In this document: piece by piece, positions 19,185 through 35,308 of the stretch
Position numbering within the stretch: the stretch's first letter is position 1
How the letters are laid out: each line of letters begins with the position of its first letter
Assembly: GCF_021172065.1 (NCBI RefSeq)
Contig: NZ_CP087880.1
Span: forward strand, 639,111-679,110
Length of the DNA stretch: 40,000 nucleotides
Origin: Pseudocitrobacter corydidari
GTDB lineage: Bacteria > Pseudomonadota > Gammaproteobacteria > Enterobacterales > Enterobacteriaceae
Reading direction: 5' to 3'
The notes under the pieces: generated by a model
The model's database searches: none
What the model saw: only the letters and a program-made list of their open reading frames with translations
Told to the model about the DNA's origin: nothing
Translations under genes and position numbers: made by a program

Positions 19185-20663
19185 ATGAGCCTGAGAGAAA
19201 AAACCATCAGCGGCGCGAAGTGGTCGGCCATGGCGACCGTTATCATCATCGGCCTGGGGCTGGTGCAGATGACGGTGCTGGCGCGCATCATCGATAACCA
19301 CCAGTTCGGTCTGCTGACCGTTTCACTGGTGATTATCGCGCTGGCCGATACGCTGTCTGATTTCGGTATTGCAAACTCGATTATTCAGCGCAAAGAGATA
19401 AGCCATCTCGAACTGACCACCCTGTACTGGCTAAACGTCGGGCTGGGTGTGGTGGTGTGCGTGACGGTGTTTGCCCTGAGCGGGGCGATTGCCAGCGTGT
19501 TGCATAACCCGGATTTACAGCCGCTGATTCAGACCTTATCGCTGGCGTTTATTGTTACCCCCCATGGGCAGCAGTTCCGCGCGCTGATGCAAAAAGAGCT
19601 GGAGTTCAACAAGATTGGCCTGATTGAAACCAGTTCGGTGCTGGCGGGTTTCACCTTCACCGTGGTGTCGGCGCATTTCTGGCCGCTGGCGATGACTGCG
19701 ATCCTCGGTTATCTGGTCAACAGCGCGGTGCGTACGCTGCTGTTTGGCTACTTTGGCCGCAAAATTTATCGCCCTGGGCTGCATTTCTCGCTGGCGAGCG
19801 TGTCGTCTAACCTGCGTTTCGGCGCATGGCTGACGGCGGATAGTGTCATCAACTACGTGAATACTAACCTCTCAACGCTGGTGCTGGCGCGTATTCTGGG
19901 GGCGAGCGTCGCGGGCGGCTACAACCTGGCCTATAACGTGGCGGTGGTACCGCCGATGAAGCTGAACCCGATTATTACCCGCGTGCTGTTCCCGGCGTTC
20001 GCCAAAATCCAGGACGACACGGCCAAACTGCGCGTCAACTTCTACAAGCTGCTTTCCGTGGTTGGCATTATCAACTTCCCGGCGCTGCTTGGGCTAATGG
20101 TGGTGAGCAACAACTTTGTGCCGCTGGTTTTCGGTGAGAAGTGGGCGAGCATCATTCCGGTGCTGCAACTGCTGTGCGTGGTGGGGCTACTGCGTTCGGT
20201 GGGGAATCCGATTGGTTCGTTGCTGATGGCGAAAGCGCGCGTCGATATCAGCTTTAAATTCAACGTCTTTAAAACCTGCCTGTTTATCCCGGCGATTATT
20301 GTCGGCGGCCAGTTGGGCGGCGCGATTGGCGTCACGCTGGGCTTCCTGCTGGTGCAAATTATCAACACCATTCTGAGCTATTTCGTGCTGATCAAACCCA
20401 TTCTGGGCTCCAGCTACCGTGAATACATTCTCAGCCTGTGGCTGCCGTTTTATCTCTCCTTGCCCACGCTCGCGGTGAGTTACGGCCTGGGCTGGGCGCT
20501 GAACGGTCAGCTATCGCTGGCGCTGCTGCTGGCGGTGCAGATTGCCGCAGGCGTACTGGCCTTTGGGGGGATGATTGTGCTCTCCCGCCACCCGCTGGTG
20601 GTGGAGATGAAGCGCCAGCTGTGCCGTAACGAGAAGATGAAAACACTGCTTCGCGCAGGCTAA
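19185..20663 (+). CDS. wzxC: Colanic acid repeat-unit flippase WzxC (MOP superfamily)
   Basis: 492 aa, polytopic. N-terminus MSLREKTISGAKWSAMATVIIIGLGLVQMTVLARIIDNHQFGLL is almost identical to E. coli WzxC as recalled. Confidence 0.97.
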   Translation: MSLREKTISGAKWSAMATVIIIGLGLVQMTVLARIIDNHQFGLLTVSLVIIALADTLSDFGIANSIIQRKEISHLELTTLYWLNVGLGVVVCVTVFALSGAIASVLHNPDLQPLIQTLSLAFIVTPHGQQFRALMQKELEFNKIGLIETSSVLAGFTFTVVSAHFWPLAMTAILGYLVNSAVRTLLFGYFGRKIYRPGLHFSLASVSSNLRFGAWLTADSVINYVNTNLSTLVLARILGASVAGGYNLAYNVAVVPPMKLNPIITRVLFPAFAKIQDDTAKLRVNFYKLLSVVGIINFPALLGLMVVSNNFVPLVFGEKWASIIPVLQLLCVVGLLRSVGNPIGSLLMAKARVDISFKFNVFKTCLFIPAIIVGGQLGGAIGVTLGFLLVQIINTILSYFVLIKPILGSSYREYILSLWLPFYLSLPTLAVSYGLGWALNGQLSLALLLAVQIAAGVLAFGGMIVLSRHPLVVEMKRQLCRNEKMKTLLRAG

Positions 20664-24697: not shown

Positions 24698-24726
24698 TCA
24701 TCAACCGTATATAGGTGGACACGATA

Positions 24727-25620
24727 ATGGTTAATTTGAAAGCAGTCATTCCGGTAGCCGGGCTGGGCATGCATATGCTCCCTGCCACCAAGGCCATTCC
24801 TAAAGAGATGCTACCGATCGTTGACAAGCCGATGATCCAATACATCGTCGACGAAATTGTTGCTGCAGGGATCAAAGAAATCGTCCTGGTCACCCACGCC
24901 TCCAAAAATGCCGTGGAAAACCACTTCGACACCTCCTACGAACTGGAAGCCCTGCTGGAGCAACGCGTTAAGCGTCAGCTGCTGGCGGAAGTTCAGTCCA
25001 TTTGCCCACCGGGCGTTACCATCATGAACGTGCGTCAGGCACAGCCGCTGGGCCTGGGCCACTCAATTCTTTGCGCGCGTCCGATCGTTGGCGATAACCC
25101 GTTTGTGGTAGTTCTGCCCGATATCATTCTCGATGGCGCATCCGCCGACCCACTGCGTTATAACCTTGCTGCGATGGTGGCACGTTTCAACGAAACGGGC
25201 CGCAGCCAGGTGCTGGCGAAACGTATGCCGGGCGATCTTTCTGAATACTCGGTTATTCAGACCAAAGAGCCGCTGACCGTAGAAGGTAAGGTGAGCCGTA
25301 TCGTTGAGTTCATCGAAAAACCGGACCAACCGCAAACGCTGGATTCCGACCTGATGGCAGTAGGGCGCTATGTGCTTTCCGCTGACATCTGGGCCGAGCT
25401 GGAAAAAACTGCCCCAGGTGCCTGGGGACGTATTCAGCTGACGGATGCTATTGCCGAGCTGGCGAAGAAACAGTCCGTTGACGCGATGCTGATGAGCGGC
25501 GACAGCTACGACTGCGGAAAGAAAATGGGTTACATGCAGGCGTTTGTCCAGTACGGGCTGCGCAACCTGAAAGAAGGGGCCAAGTTCCGTAAAGGGATTG
25601 AGAAACTGCTGTCAGAATAA
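24727..25620 (+). CDS. galF: UTP-glucose-1-phosphate uridylyltransferase-like subunit GalF
   Basis: ATG at 24727 gives [43 protein letters not shown]... (297 aa). The GLGMHM variant of the GalU GLGTRM loop is diagnostic of GalF. The ORF-track GTG at 24715 is rejected. Confidence 0.97.
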
Positions 25621-25893: not shown

Positions 25894-25932
25894 CAGTGCA
25901 CTGGTAGCTGTTGAGCCAGGGGCGGTAGCATA
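25894..25932 (+). promoter_or_regulatory. JUMPStart element with an ops-like site upstream of the O-antigen cluster
   Basis: CAGTGCACTGGTAGCTGTTGAGCCAGGGGCGGTAGCATA closely matches the 39-bp JUMPStart consensus (CAGTGCTCTGGTAGCTGTTAAGCCAGGGGCGGTAGCGTG, as recalled). The ops core GGCGGTAG is at 25921-25928. It lies 18 nt upstream of the first O-antigen gene. Confidence 0.85.
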
Positions 25933-25949: not shown

Positions 25950-26345
25950 ATGAAGAGAATTATTACTTTCGGTACATTTGACGTCTTTCATGTTGGTCAT
26001 GTTAATATTCTGGAAAGAGCTGCTGAATATGGCAATCATTTGATTGTAGGTGTGAGTTCCGATAATTTGAATTATGCTAAAAAGGGGAGGTTTCCCGTCT
26101 ACAGTCAACAAGAAAGATGTCGAATTATAAGCGCCTTAAAATTTGTTGATGAAGTGTTTTTGGAAGAGTCTCTTGAGCTTAAAAAAAATTACATTTTAGA
26201 GTTTCGTGCTGATGTACTTATTATGGGGGATGACTGGAAAGGACGTTTTGATTGGGTGAAGGACGTCTGCGAAGTTATTTATTTACCAAGAACACCTTCA
26301 ATATCAACTACTGAGATTATTGAAGTGGTAAAACAGTTAAAATAA
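25950..26345 (+). CDS. Glycerol-3-phosphate cytidylyltransferase (TagD/TarD-like; makes CDP-glycerol)
   Basis: 131 aa. HxGH motif in GTFDVFHVGH and the RTxxISTT motif (RTPSISTTEI). Colinear with B. subtilis TagD as recalled (...VFVMGDDWEGKFDFLKD.CEVVYLPRT.GISTT). AT-rich. Confidence 0.9.
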   Translation: MKRIITFGTFDVFHVGHVNILERAAEYGNHLIVGVSSDNLNYAKKGRFPVYSQQERCRIISALKFVDEVFLEESLELKKNYILEFRADVLIMGDDWKGRFDWVKDVCEVIYLPRTPSISTTEIIEVVKQLK

Positions 26346-26420: not shown

Positions 26421-27506
26421 ATGAATCATATTTTAAGATTTGCTATTTCACTATTTTCTCTACCAATTGTCTTCATTCTTAGACCATTTATAACTAAAAA
26501 TAAGTATCTTTTCTACTCTCCTCTTGGGCTCAAAGGGAATATCAAATATTTATATGATTATTACAAGGAAAAAGGTGAGTGTTGCGAGTTTATCGATATA
26601 AGTCAGATTACATTGAAACAGCAAATTAAGCTTGTTTTTAATTTTGCAAAAACACGAGCTGTTTTTTTGACCCATGGTTTAGGAAGATTACCCTTAGCAT
26701 GTTTTCTGGTACCAAGAGTCCAATTGTGGCATGGTTTCCCACTCAAAAATATTCTCCTAAATAGCCCTTATGATTTAAATAAATTTAGTTTTATTGGTTT
26801 CAATAAAGTTTATAAGCTGCTTTATAGGTTAAGGATTTATTTTAGCTACACATATTTGGTTACATCTGACTCACTAATGGGAAGGCGATTAGCTAATAGC
26901 TTCAGATATAATGATAATAAAGTTTTGTTTTTTGGTGTGCCCTCACAGGAAGTTGCGGAATCAAAAATCAAAAAGAATAAAGATAATCTTCTAAAAATCC
27001 TATATCTCCCAACTTGGCGAGATGGTTCGGATGATATTAAAGATATATTGTTAAAAATGAAAACTGCTTTTGAAAATAAGTTTTCAACAGATAATGAAAT
27101 TAATTTAATTATTAAGTTGCATCCATATGAATTGAAACGAATTGACGTCAAAAAGTTAGAAAGCACTAATGTCAAATTTATTAATTCAGATGTTTGTGAC
27201 ATGGTGGATTTTTATTCTGAGTTTGATTGTTTAATTACGGATTATTCCAGTGCTTGTTTTGAGTTTGCACCCGTTTCTAAAAGTGTAATTTTCTATACTC
27301 CTGATATAGATAGATACATGAATAACCGGGGGTTTGATGAACATATGAATATGATGATAAGAAAATTAGGTATTCGTGATGTTGATGATTTACTAGCCGC
27401 TCTATTACAATTAAAAAACAATGATAAATTTTTCGCGTTAGATTATACCACGTATGTTGGAAGTAGTAAGGGGTGTATGGAATCCATTTATGCAAAATTT
27501 AAATAA
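26421..27506 (+). CDS. CDP-glycerol glycerophosphotransferase (TagB/TagF family)
   Basis: 361 aa. Family-typical blocks are present: VQLWHGFPLKNI, ILYLPTWRDG, IKLHPYE, LITDYSSACFEF. SD GAAGG lies upstream. Confidence 0.85.
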   Translation: MNHILRFAISLFSLPIVFILRPFITKNKYLFYSPLGLKGNIKYLYDYYKEKGECCEFIDISQITLKQQIKLVFNFAKTRAVFLTHGLGRLPLACFLVPRVQLWHGFPLKNILLNSPYDLNKFSFIGFNKVYKLLYRLRIYFSYTYLVTSDSLMGRRLANSFRYNDNKVLFFGVPSQEVAESKIKKNKDNLLKILYLPTWRDGSDDIKDILLKMKTAFENKFSTDNEINLIIKLHPYELKRIDVKKLESTNVKFINSDVCDMVDFYSEFDCLITDYSSACFEFAPVSKSVIFYTPDIDRYMNNRGFDEHMNMMIRKLGIRDVDDLLAALLQLKNNDKFFALDYTTYVGSSKGCMESIYAKFK

Positions 27507-28272
27507 TTCATTAGTTTCAATTATTATGCCTATATATAATGGTGAGGCCTATATTCATGATTCTATATCATCAGTTAAAAAACAAAGTTATGATAATTGG
27601 GAGTTAATAATTATTGATGATCATTCAAATGACGCAAGTTTACAAATAGCGCAAAAATATGCAGAGCAAGATGAAAGGGTCAAAGTATTTCAAACAGAGA
27701 TGCTTTGTAGTGGAGCTGCAAAAGCAAGAAATTTGGGAGTTCAATATTGTACTGGTCGATATATAGCATTTCTAGATTGTGATGACTATTGGTCTGCTAA
27801 TAAAATTCAGTTGCAAATAGCATTGATGAAAGAACATAATGCTAATTTTTGTTATGGGTCTTATGCTATATTTTCTGGTCATGTAAACAACCTCATTGGC
27901 GAATTTCGGCCACAATCACTAATAAGTTACAGCAAATTGCTTAGGGGATGTGATATTGGTTGCTTGACCGTAATGTATGATTCATATGCCTTGGGGAAAC
28001 ATTTTTTTCCTATGGTTGATAAAGAAGATTATGCTCTTTGGTTAAAAATACTTAAGTCTGAGCATGCCAGAGTAGTGCTCTGTGAAAGTATTATTGCTTT
28101 TTATCGAGTGTCTTCAGAATCACTCTCGTCTAATAAATGGAGGGAGTTAGTACGGCAATATAATGTTTATCGCAGGGTTGAAGGTATTGGAGTGCTCAAG
28201 TCTCTATTTTATTTATCCTGTTATGCGTGCTATGGATTGAAAAAACATTACATAAATTATAGAGGTAAATAA
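27490..28272 (+). CDS. Glycosyltransferase family 2
   Basis: From ATG 27490: MQNLNNSLVSIIMPIYNGEAYIHDSISSVKKQSYDNWELIIIDDHSND...FLDCDDYW (GT-A fold, DXD). The ORF-track start at 27454 lies deeper inside the preceding gene. With 27490 the overlap is 17 nt. Confidence 0.88.
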   Translation: MQNLNNSLVSIIMPIYNGEAYIHDSISSVKKQSYDNWELIIIDDHSNDASLQIAQKYAEQDERVKVFQTEMLCSGAAKARNLGVQYCTGRYIAFLDCDDYWSANKIQLQIALMKEHNANFCYGSYAIFSGHVNNLIGEFRPQSLISYSKLLRGCDIGCLTVMYDSYALGKHFFPMVDKEDYALWLKILKSEHARVVLCESIIAFYRVSSESLSSNKWRELVRQYNVYRRVEGIGVLKSLFYLSCYACYGLKKHYINYRGK

Positions 28273-28273
28273 A

Positions 28274-29578
28274 TTGATAATGCGTGATGATAAATTCATC
28301 CATAGAACTTTTTTTATAGTTTTTTTCTTTTCTATATTTTGTTCTTTTAATTTTTTGCCATTTATTAGTGCCGAAGTGCAGCCTGTAATTGGTGTGTTCA
28401 TTATAGCATACGGTACTGTTCAAATACTTTTAAATTTAAAGTTATCAAGCACATCCTTTAGTATAGTAATATTCCTGTTTTTTCTGGCGCCTTCATTTGT
28501 TATAGGGGTTTTAACAAAAGCTTCAAACGGGATTACAATATTTTTCTATTTGATTGGTCCGGCTGTTTTTTGTTACTTTTATAAATATTTTGGATTTTTA
28601 CAAAAAAAACATTTAGTTATAATATTGACTGTTTTTTTTATTGTTTCAATTATTCAGGCTATTTCTCCTGATGCTATTAATGGTATTATTAATCCTATAT
28701 TTGAAAAAATAATTAAACGAGGGCGTCTGGGTTTTTATGGCGGTGGGCGAGGTGTAGGTGTTCTATATTCTGAACCAGCGCATGCTGCAAAGTACATATT
28801 TTTATTATCAGTACTGCTGATAACGATGATTATTTCCCCTAAGTTATTTCATGATATAAATACTCATTACAATAAAAAGAATATATTTCTAGTTTTCATG
28901 CTTGTTGTATGTATTTTTTTAAATAAAAGCGCATCGCTTTATGCTACTTATTTAATACTTTTGTTTTTTTATTTGTTTTTTTATTTTCTGAGTGCAAATG
29001 TCAATCGGTTGTTATCATTTTTTATTATTGCGCCAATGTTATTATTTGCAGTTTATGTTTTTATTTTGTTTGGGGGATATAATTTCCTACCTGAACGTTT
29101 ATCCGGGATCATGAACTCATTCCTTGAAGTTAGGAAGGATTTTAGTTTAGATGATTTACAATATTTTGGAAGTATCAGAATAATATCTGTTATAGCGGGA
29201 TATGCTGGAGCATTTATCGAGCCTTTAGGGGTCGGTTTAGGCAATGGCGGGGATGAGATATTTCAAATTATGGAGAAAGTGGGTTTTAATACTAATGCTA
29301 TTTCCTTCTTGACGAGCCAGGATGTTGAGTTCCTTAAGCCTAATGCATATGGAGCTCAAATTTCACTTGATGCAGGTATTCTGGGTTTTGTTATAGTAAT
29401 GAGTTTTACTATTTATTTGCTTTCGAAAATTAATACAGCAACTAAAACACATTGTTTTTTTAGTTCGCTATTAGCTTTGTCAATTTTTCAGATATTGTTT
29501 TTCAGTACCACTACTGTTACGGCTCCCTGGATGACCTTGGCTTTAAGCTTATTTGCATTAAAAAGGTTAAAGAGATGA
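28274..29578 (+). CDS. wzy: O-antigen polymerase (Wzy-like / O-antigen ligase-like polytopic membrane protein)
   Basis: 434 aa, very hydrophobic, ~10+ TM segments. C-terminal block GVGLGNGG...(x~35)...PNAYGAQISLDAGILGFVIV resembles the Wzy_C pattern (GxGxG ... HNxxLxxxxExGxxG). TTG at 28274 has SD GAGGT 7 nt upstream. An alternative ATG is at 28280. Confidence 0.75.
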   Translation: MIMRDDKFIHRTFFIVFFFSIFCSFNFLPFISAEVQPVIGVFIIAYGTVQILLNLKLSSTSFSIVIFLFFLAPSFVIGVLTKASNGITIFFYLIGPAVFCYFYKYFGFLQKKHLVIILTVFFIVSIIQAISPDAINGIINPIFEKIIKRGRLGFYGGGRGVGVLYSEPAHAAKYIFLLSVLLITMIISPKLFHDINTHYNKKNIFLVFMLVVCIFLNKSASLYATYLILLFFYLFFYFLSANVNRLLSFFIIAPMLLFAVYVFILFGGYNFLPERLSGIMNSFLEVRKDFSLDDLQYFGSIRIISVIAGYAGAFIEPLGVGLGNGGDEIFQIMEKVGFNTNAISFLTSQDVEFLKPNAYGAQISLDAGILGFVIVMSFTIYLLSKINTATKTHCFFSSLLALSIFQILFFSTTTVTAPWMTLALSLFALKRLKR

Positions 29579-30321
29579 ATTTGATCTTAAATAATTGGTA
29601 CTTATATGTCATTCCCTTTTTATATGGCATGATGCTGCTCATTGAGTTCATATCACAATATAGTCGAGTGGCTGGATATTTTATTGATAAAAATGCAATA
29701 GCCTATTCTTTGCAGAATACTACTTTTACTTTAACACGTTTCTTCTCTGTATTGCTGATGCCTCTGATTGGTCTTATGGTCGATAGTGGTTATACACCTT
29801 CTATCTTCATAGTATGTGTGCTCTTATCTTTCTACTTTGCGGCTATCTTAGGTGGTGGAGTATATTTCTTACGTAAACCAATTTGCAACTTTTATATAAG
29901 ATTCATTATAAACTATGTCAATGGTAGAGGGATCTTTCATTCGTTTTTCAGGTCTATTTCCAATAGTAAAGTGGAAGGAATAAAAGTTGATATTTCAGAT
30001 ATAGATAACTTTAAAGTTGATTATAAATATTTCTTTATTGCATGCTTTGTTTATTCTATTCATGCTATAGGGATCTTCATGACTTTTTATTTTGCTCTAA
30101 TATCGCCTAGTCATAAAATAATGATTACGCAAATGTCTGGTGTTATAAATGCCTTTGCAACTTTATTATTAACTTTTAAAATTGATCCTGCGCTTTCGGT
30201 AGCCATTGAGAGGCGTTATAATTTTATTTCTGCTTTTATGTCAATATTTTATGCTCGAATTTTTGTATTCTCAGTTATTGCGCCGGCTATATTTTTATTA
30301 CTCTATAAGGCAACTGTTTAA
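29575..30321 (+). CDS. Small six-TM membrane protein, candidate Amj/DUF2837-like flippase (function unverified)
   Basis: 248 aa. ATGA overlap with wzy. Hydrophobic segments at roughly residues 7-27, 51-69, 75-99, 152-176, 183-202 and 218-244, with a basic central loop at 100-150. Blocks SRVAG (30-34), PLIGLMVD (63-70) and MSGVINAFATLLLTFKIDP (187-205) resemble, from memory only, conserved blocks of B. subtilis Amj (YdaH). The coding call is solid; the family call is tentative. Confidence 0.8.
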   Translation: MNLILNNWYLYVIPFLYGMMLLIEFISQYSRVAGYFIDKNAIAYSLQNTTFTLTRFFSVLLMPLIGLMVDSGYTPSIFIVCVLLSFYFAAILGGGVYFLRKPICNFYIRFIINYVNGRGIFHSFFRSISNSKVEGIKVDISDIDNFKVDYKYFFIACFVYSIHAIGIFMTFYFALISPSHKIMITQMSGVINAFATLLLTFKIDPALSVAIERRYNFISAFMSIFYARIFVFSVIAPAIFLLLYKATV

Positions 30322-30324
30322 ACA

Positions 30325-31269
30325 ATGACAATGAAATTTTCAGTTATAATCCCTCTTTATAATAAAGAGAAATATATTGCAAGTGCAATATGGTCCATCT
30401 TGGATCAGACATATCAAGATTTTGAAATAATAGTGGTTGATGATGGTTCTACAGATAAAAGCGTTTGTGTTGTTGAAAACATAAATGATACGCGTATAAA
30501 ACTAATAAAACAAAAAAACTGTGGCGTTTCGTGTGCAAGAAATACTGGAATTAATAATGCTGTTGGCGACTATTTACTTTTTCTCGACGGGGATGACATT
30601 TATTTGCCAAATGCGTTAGAGCATTTCTCTTTTTTAATTGAAAAATTTCCTGATAATGGTTATTACTGCTCTAACTATTATAGGGTTCGCGACGGGCATA
30701 AAACACCAGCAATAGATGTATCAAGGATTTTGGGTAAAAAATTCGAATATGGTGTTGTGGATAATTTTTTCTATATAGCCGCATATCATCCTGGATCTTT
30801 TCCATGCCATGCCTCAACTTTCTGTATTGAAAGGAAATCACTATTAATCAGTGAGTTGACTTTTCCGAATGGGGTTACTCATACAGAGGATGTTTATTTC
30901 TGCTCATTATTAGCGATGAAGTTTAGACCGGTATTCTCTCGGGAATGCATACATGAATATAATCTTAACACTGAGGCTAATTCCAGAAATACCAGGCCCA
31001 CAAATGAAAGATTTATCATTGAAGAACTAAGGAAATATGTTGATACTATTCCTTGGTTAAAACATTTCTTAGCTAAGAATATTATTCACTTGCTTTATAA
31101 TTGCCTTGAGTTTGGGGACCAGGTTAATTTTTATAAGCATAAAAAAGAACCTATGTTTTCATATGGCTATATGCTCTCCTCCTATAAAATTCATTTTTTA
31201 GTATTAAAGTTTTTACCTTTTAAACTCCTCCGAAAATTGTACCTTATTAAATTAGGAAGGAAAAATTAA
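30325..31269 (+). CDS. Glycosyltransferase family 2
   Basis: 314 aa. FSVIIPLYNKEKYIASAIWSILDQTYQDFEIIVVDDGSTDKS...LFLDGDDIY (GT-A fold, DXD). Last AT-rich gene before gnd. Confidence 0.88.
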   Translation: MTMKFSVIIPLYNKEKYIASAIWSILDQTYQDFEIIVVDDGSTDKSVCVVENINDTRIKLIKQKNCGVSCARNTGINNAVGDYLLFLDGDDIYLPNALEHFSFLIEKFPDNGYYCSNYYRVRDGHKTPAIDVSRILGKKFEYGVVDNFFYIAAYHPGSFPCHASTFCIERKSLLISELTFPNGVTHTEDVYFCSLLAMKFRPVFSRECIHEYNLNTEANSRNTRPTNERFIIEELRKYVDTIPWLKHFLAKNIIHLLYNCLEFGDQVNFYKHKKEPMFSYGYMLSSYKIHFLVLKFLPFKLLRKLYLIKLGRKN

Positions 31270-34330: not shown

Positions 34331-35308
34331 ATGATTCAAGATAACAATAATGGGCGCAACGGGTATGAGCGTGAGCCGGAGCAGGTCGACCTTATCGATT
34401 TGTTAATGCAGCTCTGGCGAGGCAAGTTGACCATCATCGTGTGCGTCATCGTCGCTATAGCCATTGCTTTGGCCTATGTTTTTCTAGCGAAAGAGAAATG
34501 GACCTCAACCGCGACTATCACGCGTCCTGATGCCGCGCAGATAGCGACCTACCATAACGCGATAAATACGTTGGATTCATCAATTACCTTATCCGACGTT
34601 CAAAACCAGGTGATTAACCGTTTCAACTCCGCATTTATTGCTTTGACAGAAGCACTGGATAATCAGGAAGAGCCTGAGAAGCTGACTATTGAGCCGTCTG
34701 TTAAAGGACAGCAACTGCCACTTACCGTGACTTACGTAAGTGACACCGCTCAGTCCGCCCAACGCGGTGTAGCCGAATACATCCAAAAAATCGACGAACA
34801 AATCGCCGACGAACTGGAGCTTGACCTTAACGACACCATTAAACTGCGTGTGATGAACATTAAGGACGATCTGGAAAACCAGGAGACCGTTGCTCAGGAA
34901 CAAAAAGACCTGCGTATTAAGCAGATCACCGAATCTCTGAAGTATGCGCAGAAAAGTAACGTCACCAAACCGCAGCTTCAGCAGACGCAGGATGTTACAC
35001 AGGAAACCATGTTCCTGTTGGGGACTGAAGCGCTGGGCGCAATGGTAGCCAACGAAGCCAGCCGTCCGCTGACGTTTGGCGCAGGTTATTATGCGCTGAA
35101 GAAAAATCTGCTCGATATCGAAAAGCTGAAAGTCGATCCGAAAACCATTCACGTCTACCGTTACGTGATGAAGCCGACGCTGCCAATCCGTCGCGACAGC
35201 CCGAAACGTGGCCTGACGCTGGTCCTGGCGGTGCTGCTGGGCGGGATGATTGGTGCCGGTGTTGTGCTGGGCCGCAACGCACTGCGTAACTACAAAGCCA
35301 AAGCGTAA
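34331..35308 (+). CDS. wzzB: O-antigen chain-length determinant (polysaccharide co-polymerase PCP-1)
   Basis: 325 aa. Has N- and C-terminal TM segments. Conserved blocks: EQVDLIDLLMQLWRGK, EEPEKLTIEPSVKGQQLPLTV, YRYVMKPTLPIRRDSPK and LGGMIGAGVVLGRNALRNY. Confidence 0.96.
   Translation: MIQDNNNGRNGYEREPEQVDLIDLLMQLWRGKLTIIVCVIVAIAIALAYVFLAKEKWTSTATITRPDAAQIATYHNAINTLDSSITLSDVQNQVINRFNSAFIALTEALDNQEEPEKLTIEPSVKGQQLPLTVTYVSDTAQSAQRGVAEYIQKIDEQIADELELDLNDTIKLRVMNIKDDLENQETVAQEQKDLRIKQITESLKYAQKSNVTKPQLQQTQDVTQETMFLLGTEALGAMVANEASRPLTFGAGYYALKKNLLDIEKLKVDPKTIHVYRYVMKPTLPIRRDSPKRGLTLVLAVLLGGMIGAGVVLGRNALRNYKAKA

Follow-up and report, generated by a model that had tools for sequence, protein, structure and literature searches.

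The stretch analysed here, 40,000 nucleotides (nt) of the Pseudocitrobacter corydidari genome (contig NZ_CP087880.1, positions 639,111 to 679,110 of the forward strand; hereafter "the window", whose own numbering is used throughout), holds what looks like an O-antigen cluster of six genes between galF and gnd, in which the place of the flippase Wzx seems to be taken by a 248-amino-acid (aa) membrane protein related to Amj of Bacillus subtilis, a lipid II flippase family that is not of the MOP type. The features on which the argument leans are as follows:

Upstream of galF: the colanic-acid cluster from wza to wcaM, with wzxC among its genes
19185-20663, + strand: wzxC, the MOP flippase of colanic acid (PF13440, E 2.1e-68; PF01943, E 2e-67), given for context only
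24715-25620: galF
25921-25928, + strand: ops element GGCGGTAG of a JUMPstart-type leader (exact match), 22 nt upstream of the first gene of the operon
25950-26345, + strand: TagD-like glycerol-3-phosphate cytidylyltransferase, expected to make CDP-glycerol (PF01467, E 3.9e-24; TIGR01518, E 7e-38, under the equivalog cut-off)
26421-27506, + strand: TagF/TarF-like CDP-glycerol glycerophosphotransferase (PF04464, E 5.4e-30; weak TarF, TarL and TarB matches)
27454-28272, + strand: GT2 glycosyltransferase, TuaG-like (PF00535, E 8.3e-36; NF047683, E 2.5e-63, under its cut-off)
28274-29578, + strand: probable Wzy-type O-unit polymerase with about 11 transmembrane (TM) helices, 432 or 434 aa (sub-threshold Wzy_C match plus profile comparisons)
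29575-30321, + strand: membrane protein of 248 aa, a short-form member of the Amj family (PF10997), proposed to flip the O-unit that is linked to undecaprenyl pyrophosphate (Und-PP) (Pfam, alignment, AlphaFold2 model)
30325-31269, + strand: second GT2 glycosyltransferase (PF00535, E 7.6e-34)
Between the six-gene block and wzzB: gnd, then ugd
34331-35308, + strand: WzzB chain-length regulator (PF02706, E 2.8e-17; its E. coli homologue bears the annotation wzzB)
Downstream of wzzB, opposite strand: hisIE

The six-gene block has a G+C content of 30-35%, as opposed to 51-55% in galF and gnd, its genes meet at junctions of +75, -53, +1, -4 and +3 nt, and no terminator-like site was found within it. 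Taken together, the ops element, the tight or overlapping junctions, the lack of an internal terminator and the low G+C argue for one horizontally acquired transcription unit, and the block looks like a single RfaH-type O-antigen operon, the usual position of ops in enterobacterial O-antigen operons being between galF and the first cluster gene. The same element is also found on the + strand at 1693-1700, about 190 nt upstream of wza, in a low-G+C intergenic stretch; a third such match inside ugd (33900, minus strand) is probably due to chance. As to the gene borders, the first GT2 gene in its listed form shares 53 nt with the TagF-like gene (27454-27506), the E. coli and Citrobacter annotations place its start later, and the true start probably lies slightly downstream, and for the Wzy-like gene the ATG at 28280 (giving 432 aa, as in the homologue P0172) is a more likely start than the TTG at 28274. 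Glycerol-3-phosphate cytidylyltransferase is the closest NCBIfam model of the product of 25950-26345, and no further long open reading frame (ORF) exists on either strand between 25.6 and 31.3 kb.

None of the six cluster ORFs matches the MOP/Polysacc_synt, ABC2_membrane (PF01061) or ABC_tran (PF00005) models of Pfam, in a search for which WzxC of the same window served as the positive control (228-231 bits) and in which wzxC was the sole MOP-type gene of the window. An initial look at the DNA, made from its letters without database searches (hereafter, the first-pass annotation), had likewise seen neither a MOP/Wzx protein nor a Wzm/Wzt pair among these ORFs. The initiating transferase (WecA or WbaP) and the WaaL ligase are not within the window; Enterobacterales normally encode these outside galF-gnd.

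A Wzy-like polymerase in the cluster and WzzB downstream, both of which the first-pass annotation had already named, make the pathway a Wzy-dependent one. The WzzB assignment is borne out by the Pfam match given above, and that of the product of 28274-29578 as a Wzy-type polymerase, which we hold with moderate confidence, is suggested by profile evidence of several kinds. Pfam gives it a single, sub-threshold Wzy_C match (residues 206-263, E 0.011); hhalign, comparing its family with the Wzy_C-positive neighbours of other Amj-like genes, gives a probability of 87% (E 3.7e-6) over the C-terminal half; and an iterative hidden Markov model (HMM) seeded on those neighbours recruits it, while not recruiting WzxC, MurJ, two Wzx-like proteins or WcaD. 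Foldseek, run with a model of mediocre quality (pLDDT 62.8), returned RodA, which has the related SEDS fold, as its two best matches (E 0.16-0.32), a suggestive result only. All nine detectable homologues of the protein come from the same module, and all are named "hypothetical".

The start codon of the next gene overlaps the stop codon of the Wzy-like ORF as ATGA (29575-29578), by which the 248-aa ORF is predicted to be translationally coupled to wzy; this overlap and the ORF itself had been placed exactly in the first-pass annotation, as had three motifs, SRVAG (residues 30-34), PLIGLMVD (63-70) and MSGVINAFATLLLTFKIDP (187-205). The resemblance to Amj, which had then been noted, is now backed by a match to PF10997 (Amj, "Alternate to MurJ", DUF2837) at E 1.6e-15 and 57.6 bits, the gathering cut-off being 27, with residues 22-210 of the protein aligned to profile positions 7-206 of 253. 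The competing families that had been named beforehand (acyltransferase, GtrA and Wzy) left no match in Pfam, and neither did the MOP or ABC-2 models (GtrA being PF04138); PF01943, PF13440, PF14667, PF03023 and PF01554 gave nothing at E <= 1, and no NCBIfam model matches either the Amj-like or the Wzy-like protein. In an alignment of eight subfamily members with seven canonical, long-form Amj sequences (from Thermoanaerobacter, Chitinophaga and several metagenome-assembled genomes, MAGs), R31, G34, R55, P63, S188, G189, N192 and P205 are invariant. Subfamily members score 58-91 bits on PF10997 (the window protein, 57.6), as opposed to 284-338 bits for canonical ones. All things considered, the 248-aa protein is almost certainly a true, yet divergent, short-form member of the Amj family as judged from its sequence. 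A protein from Pseudocitrobacter sp. 73 is 99% identical to it, PF10997 is present in all of its homologues, near and remote alike, and homologues bear the PGAP name "lipid II flippase family protein" in public annotation.

An AlphaFold2 model of the protein, built with 19 homologues (pLDDT 83.8, pTM 0.79), is a confident one and all-helical, with six long helices and two short ones mid-protein, which agrees with the hydropathy profile; the roughly six hydrophobic segments counted in the first-pass annotation thus have their counterparts in the model, whereas the central loop, then described as basic, is only mildly so (eight K/R vs. five D/E). Foldseek of this model against the PDB found nothing below E 0.5, i.e., no solved structure with this fold. 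Polar or charged positions that are conserved inside the helices of the subfamily (R31, R55, D70, N192 and R228) might suit the binding of a pyrophosphate-sugar head group. Some canonical family members of 549-612 aa (P0108, P0132, P0142, P0143 and P0170) are tandem Amj-Amj fusions with two full PF10997 domains (370-460 bits); members of 550-610 aa had been considered as Amj-Wzy fusions, a notion that was rejected in favour of the tandem arrangement. Such fusions are a hint that the working unit might be a dimer of 12 helices.

Amj of B. subtilis (YdaH, PF10997/DUF2837) and the window protein share not only the Pfam family, a length of about 250 aa and roughly six long helices, but also the residues R-x-x-G, (S/T)R, P-L-x-G, SG-x-x-N and (D/E)P, and what the former is known to do, namely to bring an Und-PP-linked glycan (lipid II) from one side of the membrane to the other, is chemically the very task proposed for the latter. 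The window protein differs from canonical Amj in its shorter central loop and in having no C-terminal insert, and the substrate proposed for its subfamily is an O- or K-repeat unit instead of lipid II. The genetic settings differ as well: canonical amj genes are stand-alone or lie in unrelated contexts, the one in B. subtilis being SigM-regulated (PMC4990322), whereas subfamily genes lie in polysaccharide operons beside wzy, that of the window being within an O-antigen operon and coupled to wzy. No Wzy neighbour adjoins the canonical long-form amj in the eight loci inspected (L017-L024). In two of these, from Thermoanaerobacter, canonical amj divergently adjoins a 12-TM MFS transporter gene (PF07690, 194 bits; L022 8467-9861 and L023 8465-9862, minus strand).

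Among 1.84 billion representative proteins, a profile search yielded 593 clusters at E <= 1e-3, about 55-60 of them above ~150 bits on the subfamily profile; the subfamily was defined by a profile score of at least 159 bits, canonical Amj scoring 70-115 bits. Two scans of the collection resolved it, at 60% identity, into 14 lineages, 12 of them informative, and in every one of these 12 a co-directional multi-TM Wzy-like gene lies within 1.4 kb, often overlapping, the gene order being amj-wzy in some lineages and wzy-amj in others. Nearly all of the adjacent proteins (42/43) fall into one homologous Wzy_C-type family by the iterative HMM. Three more lineages, reached by direct look-up, fit in as well: in one, a protein with a weak Wzy_C match is encoded at a distance of one gene; in another, a membrane protein of 402 aa has an overlapping gene; and in the last, an EpsG-family polymerase is adjacent, with no MOP gene in the glycosyltransferase (GT)-rich clusters of these three, and Wzx is found nearby in almost none of the subfamily loci. 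ORF calling by our in-house procedure is noisy in high-GC metagenome loci, for which hydropathy filters and Pfam spot checks were used.

Lineages with unrelated sugar genes count for more as evidence of recurrence, and one of them is Acinetobacter radioresistens, where a 36%-identical homologue stands in a K locus of classical build (wza-wzb-wzc, genes for sugar nucleotides, amj-like, Wzy_C gene, glycosyltransferases, itrA) at the position which wzx usually occupies in such loci, the housekeeping MurJ being present 8 kb off, outside the K locus. No Wzx was found in the Acinetobacter K loci examined, and the pairing is also seen in A. chengduensis, A. lwoffii, A. gandensis, four Achromobacter species and many metagenome contigs. 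One contig of 3.2 kb from a "Clostridia bacterium" MAG (L011, JAVVYT010000155.1), which has a Wzy_C neighbour, was rejected as an independent phylum-level case, as its Amj-like protein falls into one cluster of at least 60% identity with Acinetobacter lwoffii, the short contig probably being mis-binned Acinetobacter DNA. On gene content, the Amj-like gene and the adjacent Wzy-type gene are a conserved two-gene cassette of predicted Wzy-dependent O-antigen and capsule loci devoid of Wzx.

Closer to the window, the entire module (tagD, tagF, GT2, wzy, amj-like, GT2) is found in E. coli, Citrobacter and Proteus, as well as in Providencia, and no Wzx and no Wzm/Wzt pair is encoded in the module loci of these four genera. 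The pairing with wzy, in the absence of wzx, that the first-pass annotation had proposed looking for in other galF-gnd loci is indeed there in both E. coli and Citrobacter: in the former the module has the galF-gnd position and an Amj-like protein 86% identical to that of the window, and is carried by 4 of 5,426 complete genomes (in the index of the assembly collection, 441 blocks contain the exact protein), and in the latter it has the same position and layout, a 74%-identical Amj-like protein, and is the sole galF-his cluster. Proteus mirabilis and other Proteus carry the module, with a 70%-identical Amj-like protein, in the cpxA-secB O-antigen locus (L002-L004, L009), which comprises a DegT aminotransferase, WbqC, the tagD/tagF module, Wzy and the Amj-like protein, and no Wzx. 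A survey of Proteus reported a 10-12-TM Wzx in all 60 clusters studied (PMC5560731), a generalisation that this locus contradicts, its serogroup presumably lying outside that set.

The Citrobacter version may connect the module with a chemically defined polymer. GenBank has a protein identical to the Amj-like one there (P0003, loci L057-L059), namely AWU66644.1, which bears the name "ABC transporter permease [Citrobacter werkmanii]", although no ABC transporter genes are present in the Citrobacter locus. The O14 O-polysaccharide of this species was reportedly characterised chemically by Katzenellenbogen et al. in 2008 and carries glycerol phosphate, in keeping with tagD and tagF in the window. 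Qian et al. sequenced four C. werkmanii O-antigen clusters in 2018, only O14 among them being glycerol-phosphate-bearing, and put O14 among the wzm/wzt serotypes, yet it was a GT gene that served as the O14 probe target (PMC6240886). AWU66644.1 most likely belongs to the O14 cluster (MH325893, PMC6240886), which would then have the same six genes in the same order at galF-gnd as the window, and differ from our reading of the latter in its labels, the gene being deposited as "ABC transporter permease" and the serotype being counted as wzm/wzt. The Amj-like gene of O14 was probably mistaken for wzm, a mis-annotation masking a Wzy-dependent cluster. If the module does make an O14-type polymer, its product is a genuine polymerised O-antigen, the units of which must be flipped by something.

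It is against this background that we regard the short-form Amj-like protein as probably (at about 65%, on the strength of sequence and gene context) a non-MOP flippase for Und-PP-linked repeat units, acting in place of Wzx. What favours this role is that a Wzy-like polymerase and Wzz are present, that a flippase is required, and that no other is encoded in the cluster; the recurrence of the same Amj-like/Wzy pairing without Wzx in distant lineages, amid unrelated sugar genes, makes the functional case stronger. The flipping activity, its substrate and every step of the following pathway are what we infer from these observations. WecA, encoded elsewhere, would initiate the unit on undecaprenyl phosphate (Und-P), the two GT2 enzymes would lengthen it, and TagD together with the TagF-like enzyme would attach glycerol phosphate from CDP-glycerol, all this in the cytoplasm as far as the glycerol phosphate is concerned; the Amj-like protein would then carry the completed Und-PP-linked unit across to the periplasmic side, in the role of Wzx, for Wzy to polymerise, with WzzB fixing the chain length and WaaL ligating the chain. 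Wzx itself (MOP; PF01943, PF13440) and the subfamily would thus share the pathway position, the company of Wzy and Wzz and, as proposed, the class of Und-PP-repeat-unit substrates, although Wzx has 12-14 TM helices and 400-500 aa, as opposed to about six helices and 248 aa in the window protein, and the two have no relationship in sequence or fold. That proteins other than those of the MOP type can flip Und-PP-glycans has a precedent in Wzk/PglK, which are interchangeable with MurJ (PMC4990322); these, however, are ATP-driven ABC exporters, whereas the window system has no ATPase domain or partner. Amj of B. subtilis replaces MurJ both in E. coli and in B. subtilis, Elhenawy et al. having explicitly left open in 2016 whether its flipping is dedicated to lipid II or promiscuous (PMC4990322).

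Several points weigh against such a role. Regarding the protein itself, the PF10997 match is limited to residues 22-210 of the 248, and identity to canonical Amj is just 19-21%. MOP flippases are available in trans: WzxC is encoded 9 kb upstream in the window, and WzxE, to be expected in any member of Enterobacterales, is presumably encoded elsewhere in the genome. Most of the E. coli carriers (loci L001/L008, NZ_CP063341.1 1803133-1837000, and L051-L056 were examined) also hold a complete O8 wzm/wzt mannan cluster between wzzB and hisIE, all E. coli copies have, unlike the window, an ISAs1/DDE transposase fragment between tagD and tagF, and the module in such E. coli might stand for a second (K-type) antigen or else be in decay; the layout with wzm/wzt is familiar from O8/O9 strains that have a second, Wzy-dependent (group-4-like K) antigen at galF-gnd, and E. 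coli strain L055 (OZ039513.1) has the module alone, as in the window. The attribution of AWU66644.1 to O14 is our own and was not taken from the record. In an Achromobacter-like metagenomic sub-branch (L041, L042, L044 and L046), a Polysacc_synt gene lies 6.9 kb away in a convergent operon (~17.5-18.8 kb, minus strand, together with a polysaccharide pyruvyl transferase), opposing a WecA-GT4-GT4-Amj-Wzy-WbpM operon in a region with one Wzy-like gene only, which means that both flippase types can coexist and that the replacement of Wzx is not universal. Lastly, a 2025 study found the lethality of murJ-amj loss in B. subtilis to be relieved by UppS over-production, and the biochemical role of Amj is still argued (PMC12096821).

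Some of these same points would be accommodated if a resident MOP flippase acting in trans (WzxE of the enterobacterial common antigen, ECA, or WzxC) translocated the O-unit, with the Amj-like protein as an accessory of Wzy that might stabilise or regulate it, or else as a back-up lipid II flippase offsetting the drain on Und-P that comes with O-antigen synthesis, which is an explanation that we consider unlikely. WzxC is at hand within the window, a Wzx-type gene coexists with the pairing in the L041-type loci, and the tight, sometimes overlapping association specifically with Wzy could mean a structural partnership; partial cross-use of Wzx for N-acetylglucosamine-initiated units is established, but so is the rather strict substrate specificity of Wzx at native expression. 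The pairing, moreover, recurs in Acinetobacter and Achromobacter, which have neither ECA nor colanic acid, and the examined Acinetobacter K loci are without Wzx. The logic of Und-P sequestration, as set out in PMC12826051 and PMC12096821, lends the back-up variant some appeal, yet a lipid II back-up would need no site in a polysaccharide operon, which is where the gene is found in the 12 lineages of the scans and the three of the look-up. For a homologue of a protein that replaces MurJ, flipping is the simplest activity to assume.

Quite improbable, in turn, is that the Amj-like protein moves some other lipid-linked donor (an Und-P-sugar or a glycerol-phosphate carrier) for periplasmic decoration, in the manner of GtrA or ArnE/F. 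Its small size and its approximately six TM helices would place it among other small flippases, and GT2 genes do lie on both sides of it in the enterobacterial module. GtrA-like flippases, however, are ~120 aa proteins with four TM helices (PF04138), from which the window protein differs in size, helix count and the lack of any match, and the flanking GT2 enzymes were rejected as GtrB- or ArnC-like on account of their score (the ArnC-type match is weak, 38.6 bits vs. a cut-off of 529) and the absence of predicted TM helices. Wzy is the sole periplasmic GT-C partner, and it is also the constant one, the Acinetobacter and Achromobacter neighbours being GT1 and GT4 enzymes instead of GT2; a donor flippase would, besides, leave the cluster without any flippase for its repeat unit. 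That the Amj-like protein is the Wzm permease of an ABC-transporter-dependent pathway, as the GenBank and UniRef name of P0003 and the placing of O14 among wzm serotypes in PMC6240886 would have it, is effectively refuted by the clear Amj match in the absence of an ABC2_membrane one, by the lack of an ATP-binding Wzt partner in the window, Citrobacter, Proteus and Acinetobacter loci, by the presence of a Wzy-like polymerase and Wzz and by the choice of a GT gene, not wzm, as the O14 probe target in that very study.

The first-pass annotation had believed Amj-family proteins to be undescribed as O-antigen flippases, and a literature search, whose coverage did not extend to the original Amj paper, returned no paper linking Amj/DUF2837 to Wzy, O-antigen or capsule loci, and none containing "DUF2837"; text matches to "Amj" in exopolysaccharide papers on Halomonas malpeensis and Vreelandella titanicae were discarded, being due to the author name Amjres. 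The homology as such is already visible in PGAP names, and what would be new is the deployment of a known flippase family in place of Wzx.

Textbooks present the Wzy-dependent assembly of O-antigens, capsules and exopolysaccharides under the name "Wzx/Wzy pathway" and regard a MOP flippase as an obligatory component of it, and the marker on which molecular serotyping schemes rely is wzx. If the Wzy pathway is indeed served by a second flippase family, unrelated to the first, this textbook rule would change, and both annotation and typing would be affected, seeing that loci with an Amj-like gene, e.g., Citrobacter O14, are now read as lacking processing genes or as ABC-dependent. E. coli, Citrobacter, Proteus mirabilis and Acinetobacter, all of which carry the cassette, are tractable hosts, and a six-helix flippase, maybe a dimeric one, would be a simpler object than Wzx for studies of Und-PP-glycan translocation. 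It is conceivable, too, although we lean somewhat against it, that short-form Amj and a Wzy/EpsG-type polymerase make up a self-contained, co-inherited cassette across Proteobacteria, a second and MOP-independent way of exporting repeat units, with polysaccharide flipping maybe as an ancestral or major role of Amj, in which case the flipping of lipid II in Bacillus would be either one specialisation among others or what a promiscuous Und-PP-glycan flippase does on the side. Should the flippase role of the window protein hold true, the poorly understood Amj family would gain a clear physiological setting.

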